DNA of 22,749 nucleotides from UHGV virus genome UHGV-0233466. One strand, 5' to 3'. Position 1 is the first letter of the stretch. Each line of letters begins with the position of its first letter. The position numbers and the translations under genes were made by a program. This DNA comes from a virus. Below are positions 2,466-22,240 of this stretch, piece by piece. The notes under the pieces were generated by a model, which saw nothing but the letters and a program-made list of their open reading frames with translations, did not search any database and was not told the origin of the DNA.

Positions 2466-2796
2466 ATCAGCAGCAGAGCGCAAAGCCGCTCAGAGAGCCA
2501 GACAAGCTGCATCTGGTGTGCGTAAGCTGGAAATTGTGCTTGATGCTCAGGAAATTGAAATGCTGGAGCGTAACTGTGCCACGCGTCGCCCCGGGCGTGC
2601 GCCTTACGAATTTGGTGAGTATATAGCGTTACTGATCCGCCAGGATGATGCACGCGTGCACGGGCGTATAAAATCGATCAGCAGAAAACGTTGCGGTAAG
2701 TGCGGCGAGAGAGTTCCTGTGAATTCATGCCCGTGTGATGGTGACTCGCAATGCTGGGTGACTAAAGGCTGGCATGAAACGAAATTAATAGTGTGA
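2458..2796 (+). CDS. Cys-rich (probable zinc-binding) small protein, 112 aa; candidate late-gene regulator
   Basis: ATG at 2458 overlapping the upstream stop; C-terminal CGKCGERVPVNSCPCDGDSQC cluster; sits directly upstream of the promoter-like/terminator pair preceding terS. Confidence 0.5.
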   Translation: MAKSAAERKAAQRARQAASGVRKLEIVLDAQEIEMLERNCATRRPGRAPYEFGEYIALLIRQDDARVHGRIKSISRKRCGKCGERVPVNSCPCDGDSQCWVTKGWHETKLIV

Positions 2797-2813
2797 CATG
2801 TCACGAGTAGATT
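2785..2813 (+). promoter_or_regulatory. sigma70-like promoter candidate (TTAATA, 17 bp, TAGATT) with the palindrome GTGACATGTCAC inside the spacer
   Basis: Hexamers at 2785-2790 and 2808-2813 with 17-bp spacing; palindrome at 2793-2804 lies between them. Confidence 0.3.
2793..2804. repeat. 12-bp perfect palindrome GTGACATGTCAC, copy 1 of 2 (14-mer TGTGACATGTCACG shared with copy 2)
   Basis: Read directly; overlaps the stop codon of the upstream CDS and sits upstream of terS. Confidence 0.85.
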
Positions 2814-2845
2814 ATGCATGATGAATTTGATGGGGTTTGAATACT

Positions 2846-2873
2846 GCCGCCAACTATGGCGGCTTTATTTTGC
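2846..2873 (+). terminator. intrinsic terminator between the accessory genes and terS
   Basis: GCCGCC-AACTAT-GGCGGC hairpin (2846-2863) followed by TTTATTTTG. Confidence 0.55.
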
Positions 2874-2917: not shown

Positions 2918-3511
2918 ATGCCTGCTGAACCTAAAGCCTATAAACGCAAATCAACGCAATTTAAGCCACTAACAGCAATGCAGGAGGCTTATTGCCAGTC
3001 ATACATCAAAACGCCTGAAAACCAGACTCAGGCAGCGATTAATGCAGGATTCTCCCCAAATACAGCGGCAGTTAAAGCCAGTGTCATGATGCGCGATGAA
3101 CGCATTCAAAAACGGATTGCCGAGTTGATGGAGGAGCGCAACAAACGAATGCGCGTCAGTGCTGATTACGTTCTCATGCGCCTGGTGGAGATCGACCAGA
3201 TGGACGTGATCGACATCCTCAACGACGATGGGAGCCTTAAGCCAATCCGCGAGTGGCCGAAAATCTGGCGCACTACGCTTAGTGGCTTTGATCTGTCATC
3301 GACCATCATGAACATGAACGAGGATTCGATAGAGACAATCCTCAAAAAAATTAAATGGCCTGACAAGGTGAAGAACCTCGAACTGATTGGTAAGCACGTC
3401 GACGTCAACGCATTCAAAGAACGCCTGGATGTTAATGTGAAAGTGACAATTGCTGATCGCATAGCAGCAGCCAGGAAGCGACTCAAAGAACGTCAGGATG
3501 GTAATCAGTGA
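2918..3511 (+). CDS. terminase small subunit (Terminase_2-like), about 197 aa
   Basis: ATG 2918 (or 2915) after GGTGG; motif LTAMQEAYCQSYIKTPENQTQAAINAGFS matches the conserved N-terminal helix-turn-helix of Terminase_2 small subunits; directly precedes and overlaps terL; the track start at 2837 is TTG with no SD. Confidence 0.8.
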   Translation: MPAEPKAYKRKSTQFKPLTAMQEAYCQSYIKTPENQTQAAINAGFSPNTAAVKASVMMRDERIQKRIAELMEERNKRMRVSADYVLMRLVEIDQMDVIDILNDDGSLKPIREWPKIWRTTLSGFDLSSTIMNMNEDSIETILKKIKWPDKVKNLELIGKHVDVNAFKERLDVNVKVTIADRIAAARKRLKERQDGNQ

Positions 3512-4983
3512 CAGATACAGCGTTATCTCCTGAAGAGCAGTTGATCGAGGATATTGCAGGGTTCACTCACGATCCGCTTGGCTATGCCCTCTATGCGTTC
3601 CCATGGGGGGAAGAGGGGACTGAACTGGCACATGCCACCGGCCCACGTCAGTGGCAGGCTGATGCGTTCCGAGAGATACGTGATCACCTGCAGAATCCAG
3701 AGACGCGCTATCAGCCGCTTATGCTGGCACGCGCTTCTGGTCACGGTATTGGTAAATCCGCATTCATCTCAATGCTGATCAACTGGGGCATGTCCACTTG
3801 CGAGGATTGTAAGGTCGTGGTGACCGCCAACACCGACAACCAGCTACGAACGAAGACCTGGCCGGAAATTATCAAGTGGTCGAACCTTGCTATCACGAAA
3901 GACTGGTTTACCTGTACCGCTACCGCGATGTACAGCAATGACCTAGGGCACGACAAGCGGTGGCGGGCTGACGCAATACCCTGGTCTGAGCACAACACCG
4001 AGGCATTCGCCGGACTACACAACGAGCGCAAACGCATCATCGTGGTGTTTGATGAAGCGTCGAACATTGCGGATCTGGTGTGGGAAGTTGCCGAGGGTGC
4101 GCTTACGGACGAAGACACTGAGATTATTTGGGTGGCGTTCGGAAACCCTACACGTAACACCGGGCGTTTTCGCGAATGTTTCCGCAAATATAAACACCGC
4201 TGGAAAACTGCGCAGATTGACAGCCGGACGGTGGAAGGCACTAACAAACAGCAGTTGCAGAAATGGGTTGATGACTACGGGGAAGACAGCGACTTCGTTA
4301 AAATCCGTGTGCGTGGCATATTCCCTGATGCATCTGAATTGCAGTTTATCCCTACCGGTCTTACTGACGAGGCAATGAAACGGGTGGTAACCGCTGCGCA
4401 GGTTGCACATGCTCCGGTGATAATCGGCGTTGACCCGGCATACTCCGGCGTTGATGACGCTGTGATATACCTGCGGCAGGGGCTACACAGTAAGGTGCTG
4501 TGGACTGGCAACAAGACTACCGACGATCTGATTATGGCGAAGCGTATCGCTGACTTTGAAGACCAGTATCAGGCTGACGCGGTGTTCATCGACTTCGGTT
4601 ACGGAACCGGTTTGAAGTCAATCGGTGACGGCTGGGGTCGTACATGGCAACTTGTTCCGTTCGGTGGCGCGTCTACTGACCCGCAGATGCTCAACAAGCG
4701 TGGGGAGATGTTCAATTCATGCAAGACATGGCTGAGGCTGGGCGGCATGCTGGATGACCAGGAAACAGCAGACGACCTGTCGGCGGCAGAGTACAAAGTT
4801 CGAGTGGACGGTAAAATCGTTATCGAACCGAAGGAAGATATCAAGGAGCGGCTTGGGCGTTCACCGGGTAAAGGCGATGCGCTACTGCTGACGTTTGCGT
4901 TCCCTGTGTCTAAGCGTCTGCGAATTCCCGGGCAGCAGAACCAGCAAGGCAAAGCCATCACAGACTATGATCCTTTTGCATAA
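3508..4983 (+). CDS. terminase large subunit (491 aa)
   Basis: GTG start at 3508 overlapping the terS stop, AGGATGG upstream; Walker A-like GHGIGKS near the N-terminus, acidic nuclease-domain motifs near the C-terminus (GVDPAYSGVDD); size and position. Confidence 0.85.
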   Translation: MTDTALSPEEQLIEDIAGFTHDPLGYALYAFPWGEEGTELAHATGPRQWQADAFREIRDHLQNPETRYQPLMLARASGHGIGKSAFISMLINWGMSTCEDCKVVVTANTDNQLRTKTWPEIIKWSNLAITKDWFTCTATAMYSNDLGHDKRWRADAIPWSEHNTEAFAGLHNERKRIIVVFDEASNIADLVWEVAEGALTDEDTEIIWVAFGNPTRNTGRFRECFRKYKHRWKTAQIDSRTVEGTNKQQLQKWVDDYGEDSDFVKIRVRGIFPDASELQFIPTGLTDEAMKRVVTAAQVAHAPVIIGVDPAYSGVDDAVIYLRQGLHSKVLWTGNKTTDDLIMAKRIADFEDQYQADAVFIDFGYGTGLKSIGDGWGRTWQLVPFGGASTDPQMLNKRGEMFNSCKTWLRLGGMLDDQETADDLSAAEYKVRVDGKIVIEPKEDIKERLGRSPGKGDALLLTFAFPVSKRLRIPGQQNQQGKAITDYDPFA

Positions 4984-5026: not shown

Positions 5027-5449
5027 TTAGAAGGTTATTTTATCGAATGCGGCGTTGATTGCCTTGGCGTCCTGCTCAGCACCAACCACATCAAGTAAAG
5101 ATCTTTTACTAAGCACTTCAGCCAGGCATTGTAACTTCATGTTGTATAAGTTTTCGCGCATGTAATCATCATCACTTTTTTCTTTGGCGTATACAGCGCG
5201 AGAAATATCAAACACATTGCCTTTTTCCATTTCAGTTTTCTGCGCTGAAATCCAGTCATGGCAAGTAACTCCTATTCCATGGTCATCGCTAAGCGTTAAC
5301 CCGGCAAGTCGCTCACCTGGAATTGCTTCACAAAGCATTTCATTTCCTGCAAAAACACCATAAAAAATTGAATCATCACCCTGAACAATGCGTACATATT
5401 TGCACGGCCATTCATTTAGATATTTAGCTAGCATGTCGGCTGTTTTCAT
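5027..5449 (-). CDS. hypothetical protein (140 aa), orphan leftward gene inside the rightward late region
   Basis: ATG at 5449 (minus) preceded by AAGGTGA; clean 140-codon frame; lower GC than flanking terminase and portal genes; no TM segment or recognisable motif. Confidence 0.6.
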   Translation of the reverse strand: MKTADMLAKYLNEWPCKYVRIVQGDDSIFYGVFAGNEMLCEAIPGERLAGLTLSDDHGIGVTCHDWISAQKTEMEKGNVFDISRAVYAKEKSDDDYMRENLYNMKLQCLAEVLSKRSLLDVVGAEQDAKAINAAFDKITF

Positions 5450-5460
5450 GATCTCACCTT

Positions 5461-5484
5461 AAAAAAATGCCCGGCGACCCGGGC
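5461..5484 (-). terminator. intrinsic terminator on the minus strand abutting the SD of the 140-aa gene (attenuator-like)
   Basis: GCCCGG-GUCG-CCGGGC hairpin (5469-5484) followed on the minus strand by AUUUUUUU (complement of 5461-5468). Confidence 0.55.
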
Positions 5485-5560
5485 GAACTGGAAGCAATGA
5501 GTTATGCCTTCCGTGGCTGTACTGGTTTACAGCATGAAGTCATCGCAATGGCGTCCTGCT

Positions 5561-5604
5561 GTAAAAAGGGCGGTAATAGTCCTTCAAGGGAAACTATCAC
5601 CGCC
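5561..5604 (-). terminator. intrinsic terminator on the minus strand downstream of the tRNA
   Basis: 12-bp stem (5569-5580 / 5593-5604, one G-U pair) with 12-nt loop, followed on the minus strand by CUUUUUAC. Confidence 0.45.
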
Positions 5605-5647
5605 AAGCACCTGGAACTTCTGGCATCACGGTCCTTAGGCGTGATTC

Positions 5648-5724
5648 TGGCGTGGCATGCAGGATTCGAACCTGCGACCAACCGCTTAGAAGGCGGTTGC
5701 TCTGTCCAACTGAGCTAATGCCAC
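5648..5724 (-). tRNA. tRNA-Arg (anticodon TCT, decodes AGA), 77 nt with encoded CCA
   Basis: Hand-folded cloverleaf: acceptor GTGGCAT/ATGCCAC, D-arm GCTC...GAGC, anticodon stem ACCGC/GCGGT with loop CTTCTAA, T-arm GCAGG-TTCGAAT-CCTGC, discriminator G, CCA. Confidence 0.85.
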
Positions 5725-6151
5725 AACGCTGAGAGCACTTAGCCTGTTAAGGCGCCACACTTTGTCGCGGCTCCATAAATGCTCTCATCGTTGTACCCTC
5801 GTCTCTTCCGAGGCGTCACACCGAATCGCCGGGATGGTGAATCCCCGTGCGCGGAATAAAACCGCTCGACTTGCACATTCCGGCTACCTGGTTCGTTTGC
5901 CCGAGCAAGGGAGGGTGCCCCTTAAACGTATCCAGACCGCTATCGGCGCATGTGCCATACGCCGTACTGCTCAAAATAAAAGCTCACTCCACCTGTTCAA
6001 TTTAACGACAAGCCAGTCAGGTTAATAACCGGAATGAACCATTTGCTTACCTGAAAGGTAATAATTAGTGCGTTAAATGTCAACTATCTACGATAAATAA
6101 ATCATATGTGGTTAAATTGGTAATAATTTAATTTCGTACGGAGTCATTGAT

Positions 6152-6358
6152 ATGTGCATGGGTAGCTCACCGTCAGTGCCTGCAACACCAGAAGTTCAGG
6201 CAGCACCACAGGAGCAGGATGCCGCCGTTGTTGATGCCCGCGACGAAGAAACTCGTCGCCGTCGCGCTGCTGCTGGTCGTAGTTCTACGCTGCTTACCGG
6301 TTCTCAGGGTGACACATCAACCGCTAATACCAGCGGTAAAACGCTGCTTGGTCAGTAA
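6152..6358 (+). CDS. small virion protein resembling T7 gp6.7 (68 aa)
   Basis: ATG 6152 with GGAG 8 nt upstream; N-terminal MC... and Ala/Gln/Glu/Thr-rich composition recalled as similar to T7 gp6.7; immediately upstream of the portal gene; the overlapping 6147 frame has a TTG start and no SD. Confidence 0.45.
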   Translation: MCMGSSPSVPATPEVQAAPQEQDAAVVDARDEETRRRRAAAGRSSTLLTGSQGDTSTANTSGKTLLGQ

Positions 6359-6372
6359 CCGGAGTCATTGAA

Positions 6373-8052
6373 ATGGCGGAAACAACTAAAGAGCGATTGA
6401 ACAAACAGTTCGCACAACTTGAAAGCGAGCGTCAGTCGTTCGAGCCGCACTGGCGCGAGTTGAGTGATTACATCAACCCGCGTGGTTCCCGCTTTCTGAC
6501 TTCTGAGGTTAACCGTAACGATCGACGCAATACACGCATTATTGATTCGACCGGGACTATGGCGGCGCGCACTCTTGCCAGCGGCATGATGTCAGGCATA
6601 ACAAGCCCCGCCCGTCCGTGGTTTCGCCTGGCTACGCCAGATCCTGAAATGATGGACTATGGCCCTGTTAAGTTGTGGCTTGAGGCAGTTCAGAACCGCA
6701 TGAACGATATGTTCAATAAGTCGAATCTCTACCAGTCTCTTCCGCAGTTATACGGAAGCCTCGGCACATACAGCACTGGTGCAATGGCGGTGCTGGAGGA
6801 TGACGAGGACATCATTCGCACAATGCCATTCCCGATAGGCAGTTACTACCTGGCTAACTCACCTCGTGGCAGTGTGGACACCTGTTTTCGCAAGTTCTCT
6901 ATGACTGTTCGTCAGCTTGTTCAGGAGTTCGGGCTAAATAACGTCAGCGAATCCGTAAAAAGCATGTGGGAAAGCGGCACCTACGAGAAGTGGATTGAAG
7001 TGATGCATTCGGTTTACCCGAACATTGACCGCGATACATCGAAGCTGGATAGCAAGAACAAGCCATTCAAATCGGTTTATTACGAGGTTGGTGGCGATAA
7101 CGACAAGTTGTTGCGTGAGTCCGGATTCGATGAGTTTCCAATTATGGCTCCGCGCTGGGAAGTTAACGGCGAAGATGTTTATGGATCATCATGCCCGGGT
7201 ATGCTGGCGCTTGGACCTGTTAAGGCATTGCAGCTTCTCCAGAAGCGCAAGTCGCAGTTGATTGATAAAGCCACCAATCCGCCGATGGTTGCTCCGACTT
7301 CCCTCAAGAATCAGCGCGCCTCCCTTCTTCCTGGCGACATCACGTATATCGATCAGATTACTGGTCAGGATGGTTTCAGGCCTGCTTATCTGGTTAACCC
7401 CAGTACAGCAGATTTGGTGGCAGACATTCAGGACACTCGTCAAATCATTAACAGCGCCTACTTTGTCGATCTGTTCATGATGTTGCAGAACATCAATACC
7501 CGCTCGATGCCTGTGGAAGCGGTGATCGAAATGAAAGAAGAAAAACTTCTGATGTTGGGGCCGGTTCTGGAGCGCCTGAACGACGAATGTCTTAATCCTC
7601 TCATTGACCGCTCTTTCTCGATGATGGTGCGTAAAAACATGCTGCCGCCACCGCCAGACGTGATGGAAGGTATGCCCCTGAAGGTCGAATACATTTCCGT
7701 CATGGCTCAGGCGCAGAAGTCTATCGGCCTGTCCAGTCTGGCGTCCACGGTTAACTTCATTGGTCAACTTGCGCAAGCGAAACCAGAAGCTCTCGACAAA
7801 CTCAACGTTGATCAGGCGATCGATGCATTCGCTGATATGTCCGGAGTGTCTCCAACCGTCATTGTTCCGCAGGAACAGGTTGAGCAGGCTCGCCAGCAAC
7901 GGGCACAGCAACAACAGCAGCAACAAATGATGGCGATGGGGATGGCGGCGGCACAGGGTGCCAAGACGCTAAGCGAAGCTAAAACTTCGGATCCGAGTGT
8001 TTTGTCAGCTATGGCGAATGCAGTTAGTGGTCAGGGTGGGCAATCACAATGA
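6373..8052 (+). CDS. portal protein (559 aa) with Gln-rich C-terminal tail
   Basis: Size and position between terminase and scaffold/capsid; GGAG SD; C-terminal QQRAQQQQQQQ tract. Confidence 0.7.
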   Translation: MAETTKERLNKQFAQLESERQSFEPHWRELSDYINPRGSRFLTSEVNRNDRRNTRIIDSTGTMAARTLASGMMSGITSPARPWFRLATPDPEMMDYGPVKLWLEAVQNRMNDMFNKSNLYQSLPQLYGSLGTYSTGAMAVLEDDEDIIRTMPFPIGSYYLANSPRGSVDTCFRKFSMTVRQLVQEFGLNNVSESVKSMWESGTYEKWIEVMHSVYPNIDRDTSKLDSKNKPFKSVYYEVGGDNDKLLRESGFDEFPIMAPRWEVNGEDVYGSSCPGMLALGPVKALQLLQKRKSQLIDKATNPPMVAPTSLKNQRASLLPGDITYIDQITGQDGFRPAYLVNPSTADLVADIQDTRQIINSAYFVDLFMMLQNINTRSMPVEAVIEMKEEKLLMLGPVLERLNDECLNPLIDRSFSMMVRKNMLPPPPDVMEGMPLKVEYISVMAQAQKSIGLSSLASTVNFIGQLAQAKPEALDKLNVDQAIDAFADMSGVSPTVIVPQEQVEQARQQRAQQQQQQQMMAMGMAAAQGAKTLSEAKTSDPSVLSAMANAVSGQGGQSQ

Positions 8053-22167: not shown

Positions 22168-22240
22168 AACAGCGAAGCCCAACGGTGGCCAGACCGTCAT
22201 GGCTTCAGTATCGTAAAACTACGTATAGGAATTAACGACA
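22165..22240 (-). ncRNA. predicted sar-like small antisense RNA covering the ant translation start
   Basis: Minus-strand promoter TTGATA (complement of 22269-22274), 17 bp, TATACT (complement of 22246-22251), giving a start near 22239; minus-strand terminator hairpin GAAGCC...GGCTTC (22174-22206) followed by GCUGUUUU; same arrangement as P22 sar. Confidence 0.4.

Follow-up and report, generated by a model that had tools for sequence, protein, structure and literature searches.

The question raised by this locus was what occupies the gap at positions 5725 to 6151 of UHGV virus genome UHGV-0233466, between a tRNA-Arg gene and a small gene of 68 codons. The window, by which we mean the whole stretch of 22,749 nucleotides that was analyzed, is, to judge from its sequence, a phiV10/epsilon15-type phage of the genus Uetakevirus: positions 5450 to 6400 were 98% to 99% identical to the Escherichia phages phiV10 and TL-2011b, and the Salmonella phage epsilon15 was related. 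The gene for the large terminase (3508 to 4983, plus strand) was followed by an accessory gene on the minus strand (5027 to 5449), which encodes a protein of 140 amino acids with unassigned function (phrog_4846) and is located in a slot whose gene content differs among the Uetakeviruses. This gene was separated by 2 intrinsic terminators on the minus strand, T2 (5469 to 5484) and T1 (5569 to 5604, a 14-bp stem followed by CUUUUUAC), from the gene for tRNA-Arg with anticodon UCU (tct in the DNA; 5648 to 5724, minus strand), which was identified with ARAGORN and scored 73.3 bits with the Rfam tRNA model. The U-tract of T2 reached into the ribosome binding site of the 140-amino acid gene, so that expression of this gene needs read-through of T2. 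On the other side of the gap, the gene for the 68-amino acid protein (6152 to 6358, with the ribosome binding site GGAG at 6140 to 6143) and the portal gene (6373 to 8052) were located on the plus strand.

Three observations were made in passing on the surroundings of the gap. An open reading frame of 83 amino acids on the plus strand (5467 to 5718), annotated as phiV10p04 in phiV10 and assigned to phrog_4647, runs antisense over the tRNA-Arg gene and T1, and is probably a mis-annotation turned protein family. The T1 hairpin (5568 to 5615, minus strand) showed a weak match of 18.5 bits (E-value 0.31) to the DicF RNA (RF00039), for which at least 48 bits are required; a "dicF-like region" is annotated in the ban operon of phage P1. 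Finally, a segment on the minus strand at 22171 to 22238 barely reached the gathering score of the Rfam sar RNA (RF00262; 43.6 against 43), which suggests an antisense RNA of the P22 immI type. An anti-immunity (antirepressor-like) gene is annotated near the equivalent region of phiV10.

The gap was not protein coding, in agreement with the earlier note, which had seen no convincing open reading frame in it. The open reading frames that could be delineated mechanically, at 5762 to 6025 (87 amino acids from a TTG start) and 5847 to 6005 on the plus strand and at 5816 to 5974 and 5739 to 5876 on the minus strand, had no match in Pfam, and their sole match in PHROG was a stretch of 21 residues with an E-value of 0.0014. 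Among 116 homologous copies from other phages, the lengths fell into all 3 classes modulo 3, indels did not preserve a frame, and neither an excess of variability at third codon positions nor any other codon periodicity was present. A short gene has been annotated at the homologous positions in mEp460 (gene 037) and in Ayreon, and in 84 of the 116 copies one frame on the plus strand runs through the element with no stop codon; given the lengths, the lack of periodicity and the lack of a Pfam match, we consider such a gene, like the single-stranded DNA structure discussed below, to be very improbable. Searches for known RNA families gave a similarly empty picture: with Rfam 15 at the gathering thresholds only the tRNA-Arg gene reached the score in or near the gap, where no other tRNA was detected, and a permissive scan of positions 5400 to 6400 up to an E-value of 10 placed nothing over 5725 to 6047. 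The region had not been assignable to an RNA family by eye either.

The gap consists of 2 parts with different base compositions, as described previously, with a GC content of 0.52 to 0.59 for positions 5700 to 5999 versus 0.29 to 0.42 for positions 5950 to 6149. To study the GC-rich part, 131 loci with homologous sequences were collected, from which 116 distinct copies were aligned (alignment A3), and the structure was built by hand. The element so delineated corresponds to a structured RNA of about 250 nucleotides on the minus strand, which extends from 5972 to 5725 and ends at the 5' end of the tRNA-Arg. Standard pairs accounted for 96.8% of 3,690 pair cells, compared to 24% to 44% when the 3' partners were slid by 1 to 3 columns, and none of 500 shuffles reached the observed pairing values. 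Compensatory changes were seen at 13 pairs in a total of 318 cells across the 116 copies. Moreover, about 360 cells contained G-U pairs on the minus strand that would be A-C mismatches if read on the plus strand, which identifies the minus strand as the one that folds. The z-scores of the minimum free energy, -2.3 and -2.6 for the two strands, were modest, and the case for an RNA is therefore based on the comparison of copies rather than on thermodynamics. Judged by this covariation, the GC-rich part of the gap is a conserved structured RNA. With the covariance model R1, the window yielded one copy only, located at 5967 to 5772 and scoring 176 bits.

In the order of the transcript, the RNA starts with helix P1, a hairpin of 7 bp (5944 to 5964; CGGCGUA/UGCGCCG) with the loop UGGCACA. 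Pair 10:22 in this helix was GC in 78 copies, AU in 37 and GU in 1, with no copy unpaired, and pair 8:24 was GU in 61 copies, GC in 47 and AU in 2. Helix P2 (5882 to 5941) pairs GC..UCUGG with CCAGG..GC around a hairpin of variable length; its pair 36:90 was CG in 59 copies and UA in 56, and the length of the insert differed between lineages. A block of 19 nucleotides, GGUAGCCGGAAUGUGCAAG (5870 to 5888), was invariant. The invariance in the main set is partly due to the search pattern, but the block was also invariant in copies derived from BLAST searches that were only about 70% identical overall, and no variant at G96 within it was found in all of IMG/VR. A small hairpin with the stem GCGG/CCGC, P3 (5851 to 5865), is seen in the sequence of the window within a linker that varies in both length and sequence.

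The 2 stems that had been singled out in the earlier note, CCTCG/CGAGG and GGGAT-GGTGA-ATCCC, correspond to helices P5 and P4, and since the minus strand is the functional one they belong to a leftward transcript. Helix P4 (5831 to 5834 paired with 5842 to 5845; GGGA/UCCC with the loop UUCACCA) covaried across phages with compensatory changes in 3 of its 4 pairs, and 54 of its cells contained G-U pairs that could form on the minus strand alone. The CACC in its loop (5836 to 5839) forms a pseudoknot, PK2 (5819 to 5839), with GGUG at 5819 to 5822 in the conserved joiner GGCGAUUCGGUGUGAC. Pair 147:167 of PK2 was CG in 91 copies and AU in 25, with zero unpaired cells, the AU version being found in the mEp460 type, L142 and L164 among other copies. 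Helix P5 (5797 to 5801 paired exactly with 5809 to 5813; CCUCG/CGAGG) has the conserved loop GAAGAGA and covaried in the same manner, with compensatory changes in 4 of its 5 pairs. The tail is closed by helix P6 (5725 to 5793), in which CAACGAUGAGAGCA (5780 to 5793) pairs with UGCUCUCAGCGUU (5725 to 5737) around small internal hairpins. In most lineages P6 is a helix of 12 to 15 bp with lineage-specific sequences, and in copies that are linked to a tRNA its 3' strand ends 2 to 6 nucleotides from the start of the tRNA.

Two further pairings were considered but not supported. A pseudoknot suggested by RNAalifold between GCACA in the P1 loop and UGUGC in the invariant block (PK1) involves 2 sides that are both nearly invariant, and 4 copies (L095, L164, L172 and L174) carried changes that were not compensated. 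A helix GGCG/CGCC across the joiner between P4 and P5 was rejected because of uncompensated G/A variation. Resemblances to what we take to be the ops (GGTAGC) and boxC (GGUGUG) motifs were too short to count.

The AT-rich part of the gap contains signals that point to the start of this transcript. On the minus strand, a putative sigma-70 promoter, TTGACA-17-TACCTT, has its -35 hexamer at 6078 to 6083, of which TTGAC was invariant in 6 Uetakeviruses, and, 17 nucleotides further on, its -10 hexamer at 6055 to 6060, with a predicted start of transcription near 6048. This promoter was missed by a scan for consensus promoters, since its weak -10 hexamer agrees with the consensus at only 3 of 6 positions. 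The -10 hexamer is overlapped by a palindrome, TTACCTGAAAGGTAA (6047 to 6061), of the type TTACC-N5-GGTAA, of which there were 3 in the window versus 0.35 expected and 14 in phiV10 versus 0.8 expected, including sites on both flanks of the repressor gene p40. The equivalent site is annotated as "repressor" in the record of epsilon15. Since this operator overlaps the -10 hexamer, the lysogen very probably keeps the leftward unit silent, and on these sequence features the unit is probably under repressor control. The whole segment from 6047 to 6151 was conserved in all 6 Uetakeviruses compared, epsilon15 included (alignment A4). The remaining sites of this type were scattered over many intergenic regions of phiV10 (L170) and were located at 2883 to 2897 and 2901 to 2915 in the window; one location coincided with the start of the open reading frame for the small terminase. 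The phage repressor may thus directly control many units, like C1 in phage P1.

These features speak for the leftward tRNA promoter that the earlier note had proposed among several uses of the gap. The 5' leader that separates the structured RNA from the predicted start of transcription (5973 to 6048, minus strand) is conserved only within the Uetakeviruses and contains a weak hairpin at 6013 to 6032, and we infer that the tRNA-Arg is co-transcribed with the structured RNA upstream of it. The suggestion of a structured small RNA was right as to structure, for which the covariation is strong, but the RNA appears to be the leader of the tRNA transcript instead of a free-standing RNA gene. A rightward late promoter for the virion genes was not reported by the consensus scan of positions 6084 to 6151, an AT-rich block on the plus strand that is kept in all Uetakeviruses compared and ends in the ribosome binding site of the 68-amino acid gene; such a promoter may still reside in 6084 to 6139. 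Nothing was found that would support a packaging or recognition site. The gap, for which a lack of conservation and covariation would have meant a lack of function, displays both and is thereby functional. A leftward promoter under the control of an operator and a widespread structured leader RNA, apparently undescribed, seem to account for the whole of it.

The distribution of the element is wide. In BLAST searches with positions 5725 to 6000, about 165 to 240 nucleotides matched, at 70% to 83% identity, DNA of unrelated phages that bears no annotation. The carriers included the lambda-like phages cdtI, mEp460, Ayreon, 2H10, 12 Stx2c phages and Stx2a_1447/WGPS2, the P1-like phages P1, P7, D6, SJ46 and RCS47, other Uetakeviruses, and phages of Klebsiella and Enterobacter. 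In total, the element was identified in 93 phage records, in 1,840 of 5,426 complete Escherichia coli genomes and on 591 plasmids, most of which were non-mobilizable replicons of about 90 to 100 kb like P1. When each species was represented by one genome, 23 true copies were detected, all from Enterobacteriaceae and Erwiniaceae except for one on a short contig binned as Bacillota. A match in a "Stenotrophomonas phage" was not accepted as evidence of spread beyond the Enterobacteriaceae, since it was about 78% identical, as are enterobacterial copies, and is apparently a host mislabel.

A few copies deviated from the general pattern. In a high-GC gammaproteobacterial metagenome-assembled contig (L158), a weak match over the full length of the model (2727 to 2872, minus strand; E-value 0.04), with the block of 18 nucleotides and the joiner CGAUCCGGCGUGAC, may represent a distant relative. 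A lambda-like contig from IMG/VR (L028) contained 2 copies, at 3974 to 4155 and 4781 to 4960, about 800 nucleotides apart, the downstream one of which carried changes inside the otherwise invariant block. In epsilon15 (L002, 1627 to 1793), only helix P1 and the 5' half of P2 remain; the other parts of the element have been deleted together with the tRNA and T1, and T2 and the gene that follows it have been retained. Sites for RNase III, IHF and the repressor are annotated in the gap of the epsilon15 record, the RNase III site as a prediction.

The element recurs in 3 unrelated phage groups, in each of which it is always co-oriented with the downstream genes and the neighboring tRNAs; all neighboring tRNAs, at every locus, were on the strand identified as the RNA strand. 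In the Uetakeviruses (31 distinct copies), the element is followed, in some cases by a tRNA and then, by 1 or 2 terminators and a variable accessory gene in units that read away from the portal gene; under strict matching, terminators were present between the element and the next gene in nearly all of the 31 copies. In the lambda-like phages (51 distinct copies), the repressor gene with its own terminator comes first, then operator-like repeats with a pL-like promoter and, about 40 nucleotides further on, the element, and downstream there are several hundred untranslated nucleotides with terminator hairpins, as read in 3 leaders, before the early-left genes. The strict scan had missed the hairpins with long loops in these phages, and a relaxed scan based on energies scored an antisense control equally high. 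In the P1-like phages (12 distinct copies), trnI and ban flank the element within the ban operon, which is controlled by C1, and in phage P1 no clear intrinsic terminator separates the element from ban. In all 3 settings the element precedes genes in a transcript from a promoter that bears an operator, which is annotated for Pban of phage P1 and predicted in the other two.

The neighboring tRNAs differed between these groups. A tRNA-Arg(UCU) followed in about 35 loci, starting about 55 to 120 nucleotides past helix P5, whereas in about 19 loci a tRNA-Ile(CAU) ended 14 nucleotides before the element, as in the P1-like phages, and many lambda-like copies had no adjoining tRNA. Remnants of a tRNA T-arm and acceptor stem (GCTGGTTCAATTCCAG... 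on the RNA strand) were observed just 3' of the element in SPN9TCW and 2 Stx-type lambda-like phages (L003, about 1800 to 1890; L007 and L008, about 2440 to 2500), in regions that look like decaying tRNA arrays. In phage P1 (L004), an unannotated open reading frame of 14 codons, MPIISDIQHAWVEC, at about 2395 to 2441 on the minus strand ends in UAAUG and overlaps the start codon of ban; it could encode a coupling leader peptide. The proximity of ban, a helicase gene, also brings to mind a priming or initiation signal in single-stranded DNA, which when folded would tolerate G-T pairs just as RNA tolerates G-U pairs. Yet the orientation of the element tracks transcription and the tRNAs in all contexts, and this explanation seems to us hardly credible.

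The sole published work to touch the element treated it as DNA. Song et al. (2020) mapped by RACE a small RNA of 193 nucleotides, sRNA-17, in a prophage of the mEp460 type in E. coli K1 RS218, and tested the binding of ArcA to a fragment called the sRNA-17 promoter (PMC7719688). When placed on mEp460 through the published primers, sRNA-17 covered 2311 to 2504 of L005 (minus strand), directly downstream of the element and ending at the first terminator, while the promoter fragment mapped exactly onto the element (2504 to 2753). This coincidence is what would be expected if the element were not an RNA but promoter or ArcA-binding DNA for the small RNA downstream. That interpretation, of duplex DNA bound by a protein, does not explain the compensatory changes and the G-U pairs confined to one strand. 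In the window, moreover, RNase P makes the 5' end of the RNA that follows, a tRNA, and transcription must therefore start upstream of the element. We consider it extremely unlikely. The amplicon used for qRT-PCR in the same study, which extends from the 5' end of the element into sRNA-17, agrees with an uninterrupted transcript across the element and is informative on neither strand nor promoter. Furthermore, the RACE 5' end of sRNA-17 falls inside the 3' strand of P6, which hints at endonucleolytic processing rather than at a promoter.

sRNA-17 occupies the slot that the tRNA-Arg and T1 hold in the window, in which the sRNA-17 sequence is absent. The slot after the element is in this sense a place for interchangeable small-RNA cargo, a tRNA in the window and sRNA-17 in the mEp460 type. 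This arrangement, the 5' end of sRNA-17 within P6 and the RNase III site predicted in epsilon15 would all suit an element that serves only the processing or stability of the small RNA behind it, with no effect on the polymerase. Such a role is difficult to reconcile with phage P1, where the element comes after the tRNA and before a protein gene, and with the other lambda-like lineages, where the downstream sequences differ. The conservation of the 19-nucleotide block and the joiners also exceeds the usual needs of a processing site. On balance we judge a pure processing leader to be improbable, and it ranks behind a second reading in which processing releases the element itself.

Noncoding RNAs with 3' ends made by tRNA processing are known both in eukaryotes, as in MALAT1-mascRNA, and in bacteria, where RNAs are derived from tRNA spacers, as in 3'ETS-leuZ. 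As in these cases, the structured RNA in the window directly adjoins a tRNA, and RNase P cleavage would therefore set its 3' end inside a helix. The element could then be a stable, processed RNA acting in trans, with a host protein or a defense system among the conceivable targets and the flanking tRNAs as processing signals: it would be released by RNase P at the 5' end of tRNA-Arg, or by 3' processing of tRNA-Ile in phage P1, and P6 would protect its 3' end. The short distances to the tRNAs on either side, 2 to 6 nucleotides from the P6 3' strand and 14 nucleotides past tRNA-Ile, fit this explanation, as do the movement of the element as a module among unrelated phages and positions, in the manner of tRNA genes and morons, and a two-domain pseudoknotted fold with conserved loops that would suit the binding of a protein. 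Against it, many lambda-like copies, unlike the 2 known examples, have no tRNA alongside, a terminator of its own is absent except in a few P1-like copies (L044, L073 and L104), the copy in phage P1 has no promoter of its own, and the element is always embedded in the sense orientation at the head of an operon. Moreover, only 4 reads were reported for the adjacent sRNA-17 in lysogens (PMC7719688). A released RNA of this kind is in our estimate unlikely, and is still the main rival to the explanation that we favor.

That explanation, which we put forward tentatively and by analogy as somewhat short of an even chance, is that the element is a cis-acting antitermination leader. The operator-overlapped promoter (-35 at 6083 to 6078, -10 at 6060 to 6055, operator at 6047 to 6061) would start a leftward transcript near 6048 with a leader of about 75 nucleotides, followed by the conserved RNA of about 250 nucleotides (5972 to 5725) with P1, P2, P4, P5, P6 and PK2. 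Its last helix would end at the 5' end of tRNA-Arg(UCU), with the 2 intrinsic terminators and the accessory gene still to come. The folded nascent RNA would act in cis on the elongating polymerase and turn it resistant to terminators and to Rho, so that it would pass T1 and T2 and reach the accessory gene. RNase P, cleaving at the tRNA, would afterwards release the leader, the 3' end of which would lie inside P6. Because the action would have to extend across the tRNA and over distances that vary between phages, the regulator must act processively, which fits an RNA bound to the polymerase and not a classical riboswitch.

Several observations argue for antitermination: the U-tract of T2 abuts the ribosome binding site of the next gene in the window, terminators usually follow the element, and its slot in the lambda-like phages is the slot of nutL and putL. 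Others argue against it. The first terminator past the element is where sRNA-17 ends, and it hence works at least part of the time (PMC7719688). There is no clear terminator before ban in phage P1, and epsilon15 keeps T2 and the gene after having lost most of the element. Finally, a second copy in the rightward early operon was sought and not found, each phage examined having a single copy, and homology of the element to put is not supported.

The comparison with put is instructive nonetheless. The put RNA, which is about 70 nucleotides long with 2 stems, binds the zinc-binding domain of the beta-prime subunit of RNA polymerase and suppresses pausing and termination (PMC9378689). The putL sites of HK022, HK639 and several P22-like phages are located in the same slot as the element in the lambda-like phages, just past the early-left promoter controlled by the repressor and before the terminators and the early-left genes, and no N gene was found in either case. 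In mEp460, Stx2a_1447 and 1720a-02, the interval from the repressor gene to the first of the early-left genes had no N-like open reading frame, and none is annotated in mEp460. The layout of the window is analogous, with an operator-overlapped promoter followed by the element, the tRNA, T1, T2 and the gene, and HK639, too, has only one annotated put-like copy, in the left operon.

The element differs from put in its size of about 190 to 250 nucleotides, its 5 helices and pseudoknot, and its presence outside the lambda-like phages and beside tRNAs. Neither nhmmer nor the covariance model R1 gave a match at putL and putR of HK022 and HK639, and local alignments of the element with put were not significant when compared to shuffled sequences (p-values of 0.02 to 0.9). 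A split motif of 15 nucleotides, ACGGCG-N5-14-CAUGCGYCG, occurred once per locus and only in the element and in stem I of putL (HK022 and HK639), but it had been defined after both sequences were seen. The put family is characterized by 2 irregular stem-loops with conserved sequences (GAACGGCGCG..CAUGCGUCGG; GGCGGG..CGGCAAU), and with a different architecture and no supported homology the element was not classified as a member. The relation to put is thus one of position and, if our reading is right, of function, by analogy only.

A comparison with the nut sites of lambda, which are likewise located at the head of the early-left operon, led to a similar result. The 3' strand of P6 carries a stretch, GUGCUCU(U/C), that resembles what we take to be the boxA consensus. 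It differs from lambda nut in that this stretch is base-paired in P6 and a hairpin of the boxB type is missing, and a nut site of the lambda type with boxA, boxB and N was rejected, as no N-like open reading frame was found in the carriers examined or in the window.

Phage P1, the Shiga-toxin phages and phiV10 have been heavily studied, and the element, at 190 to 250 nucleotides, is among the most conserved noncoding sequences that they have in common, yet no RNA was annotated at its position in the matching records inspected. Full-text searches for its conserved sequence blocks, the scope of which did not include King et al. (2011) on put-like RNAs, returned no paper. The RNA is absent from Rfam 15 and appears to be undescribed. 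Whether it acts on the polymerase or is released, several of the "hypothetical proteins" that have been annotated across it, mEp460_037 among them, probably do not correspond to genes. If it is a released stable RNA, it would be a new phage RNA with ends set by tRNA processing. As an antitermination leader, by contrast, it would account for early-left expression in those lambda-like prophages that have neither N nor put in the usual place, a group that includes the Stx2c and some Stx2a phages, and would provide a new interaction with RNA polymerase for structural study. It might then, although we regard this larger claim with more reserve, be the third class of RNA, besides put and the EAR element of Bacillus, to reprogram RNA polymerase for processive antitermination, with a structure distinct from theirs, far more widespread than put and disseminated as a cassette with a cargo of tRNAs or small RNAs.
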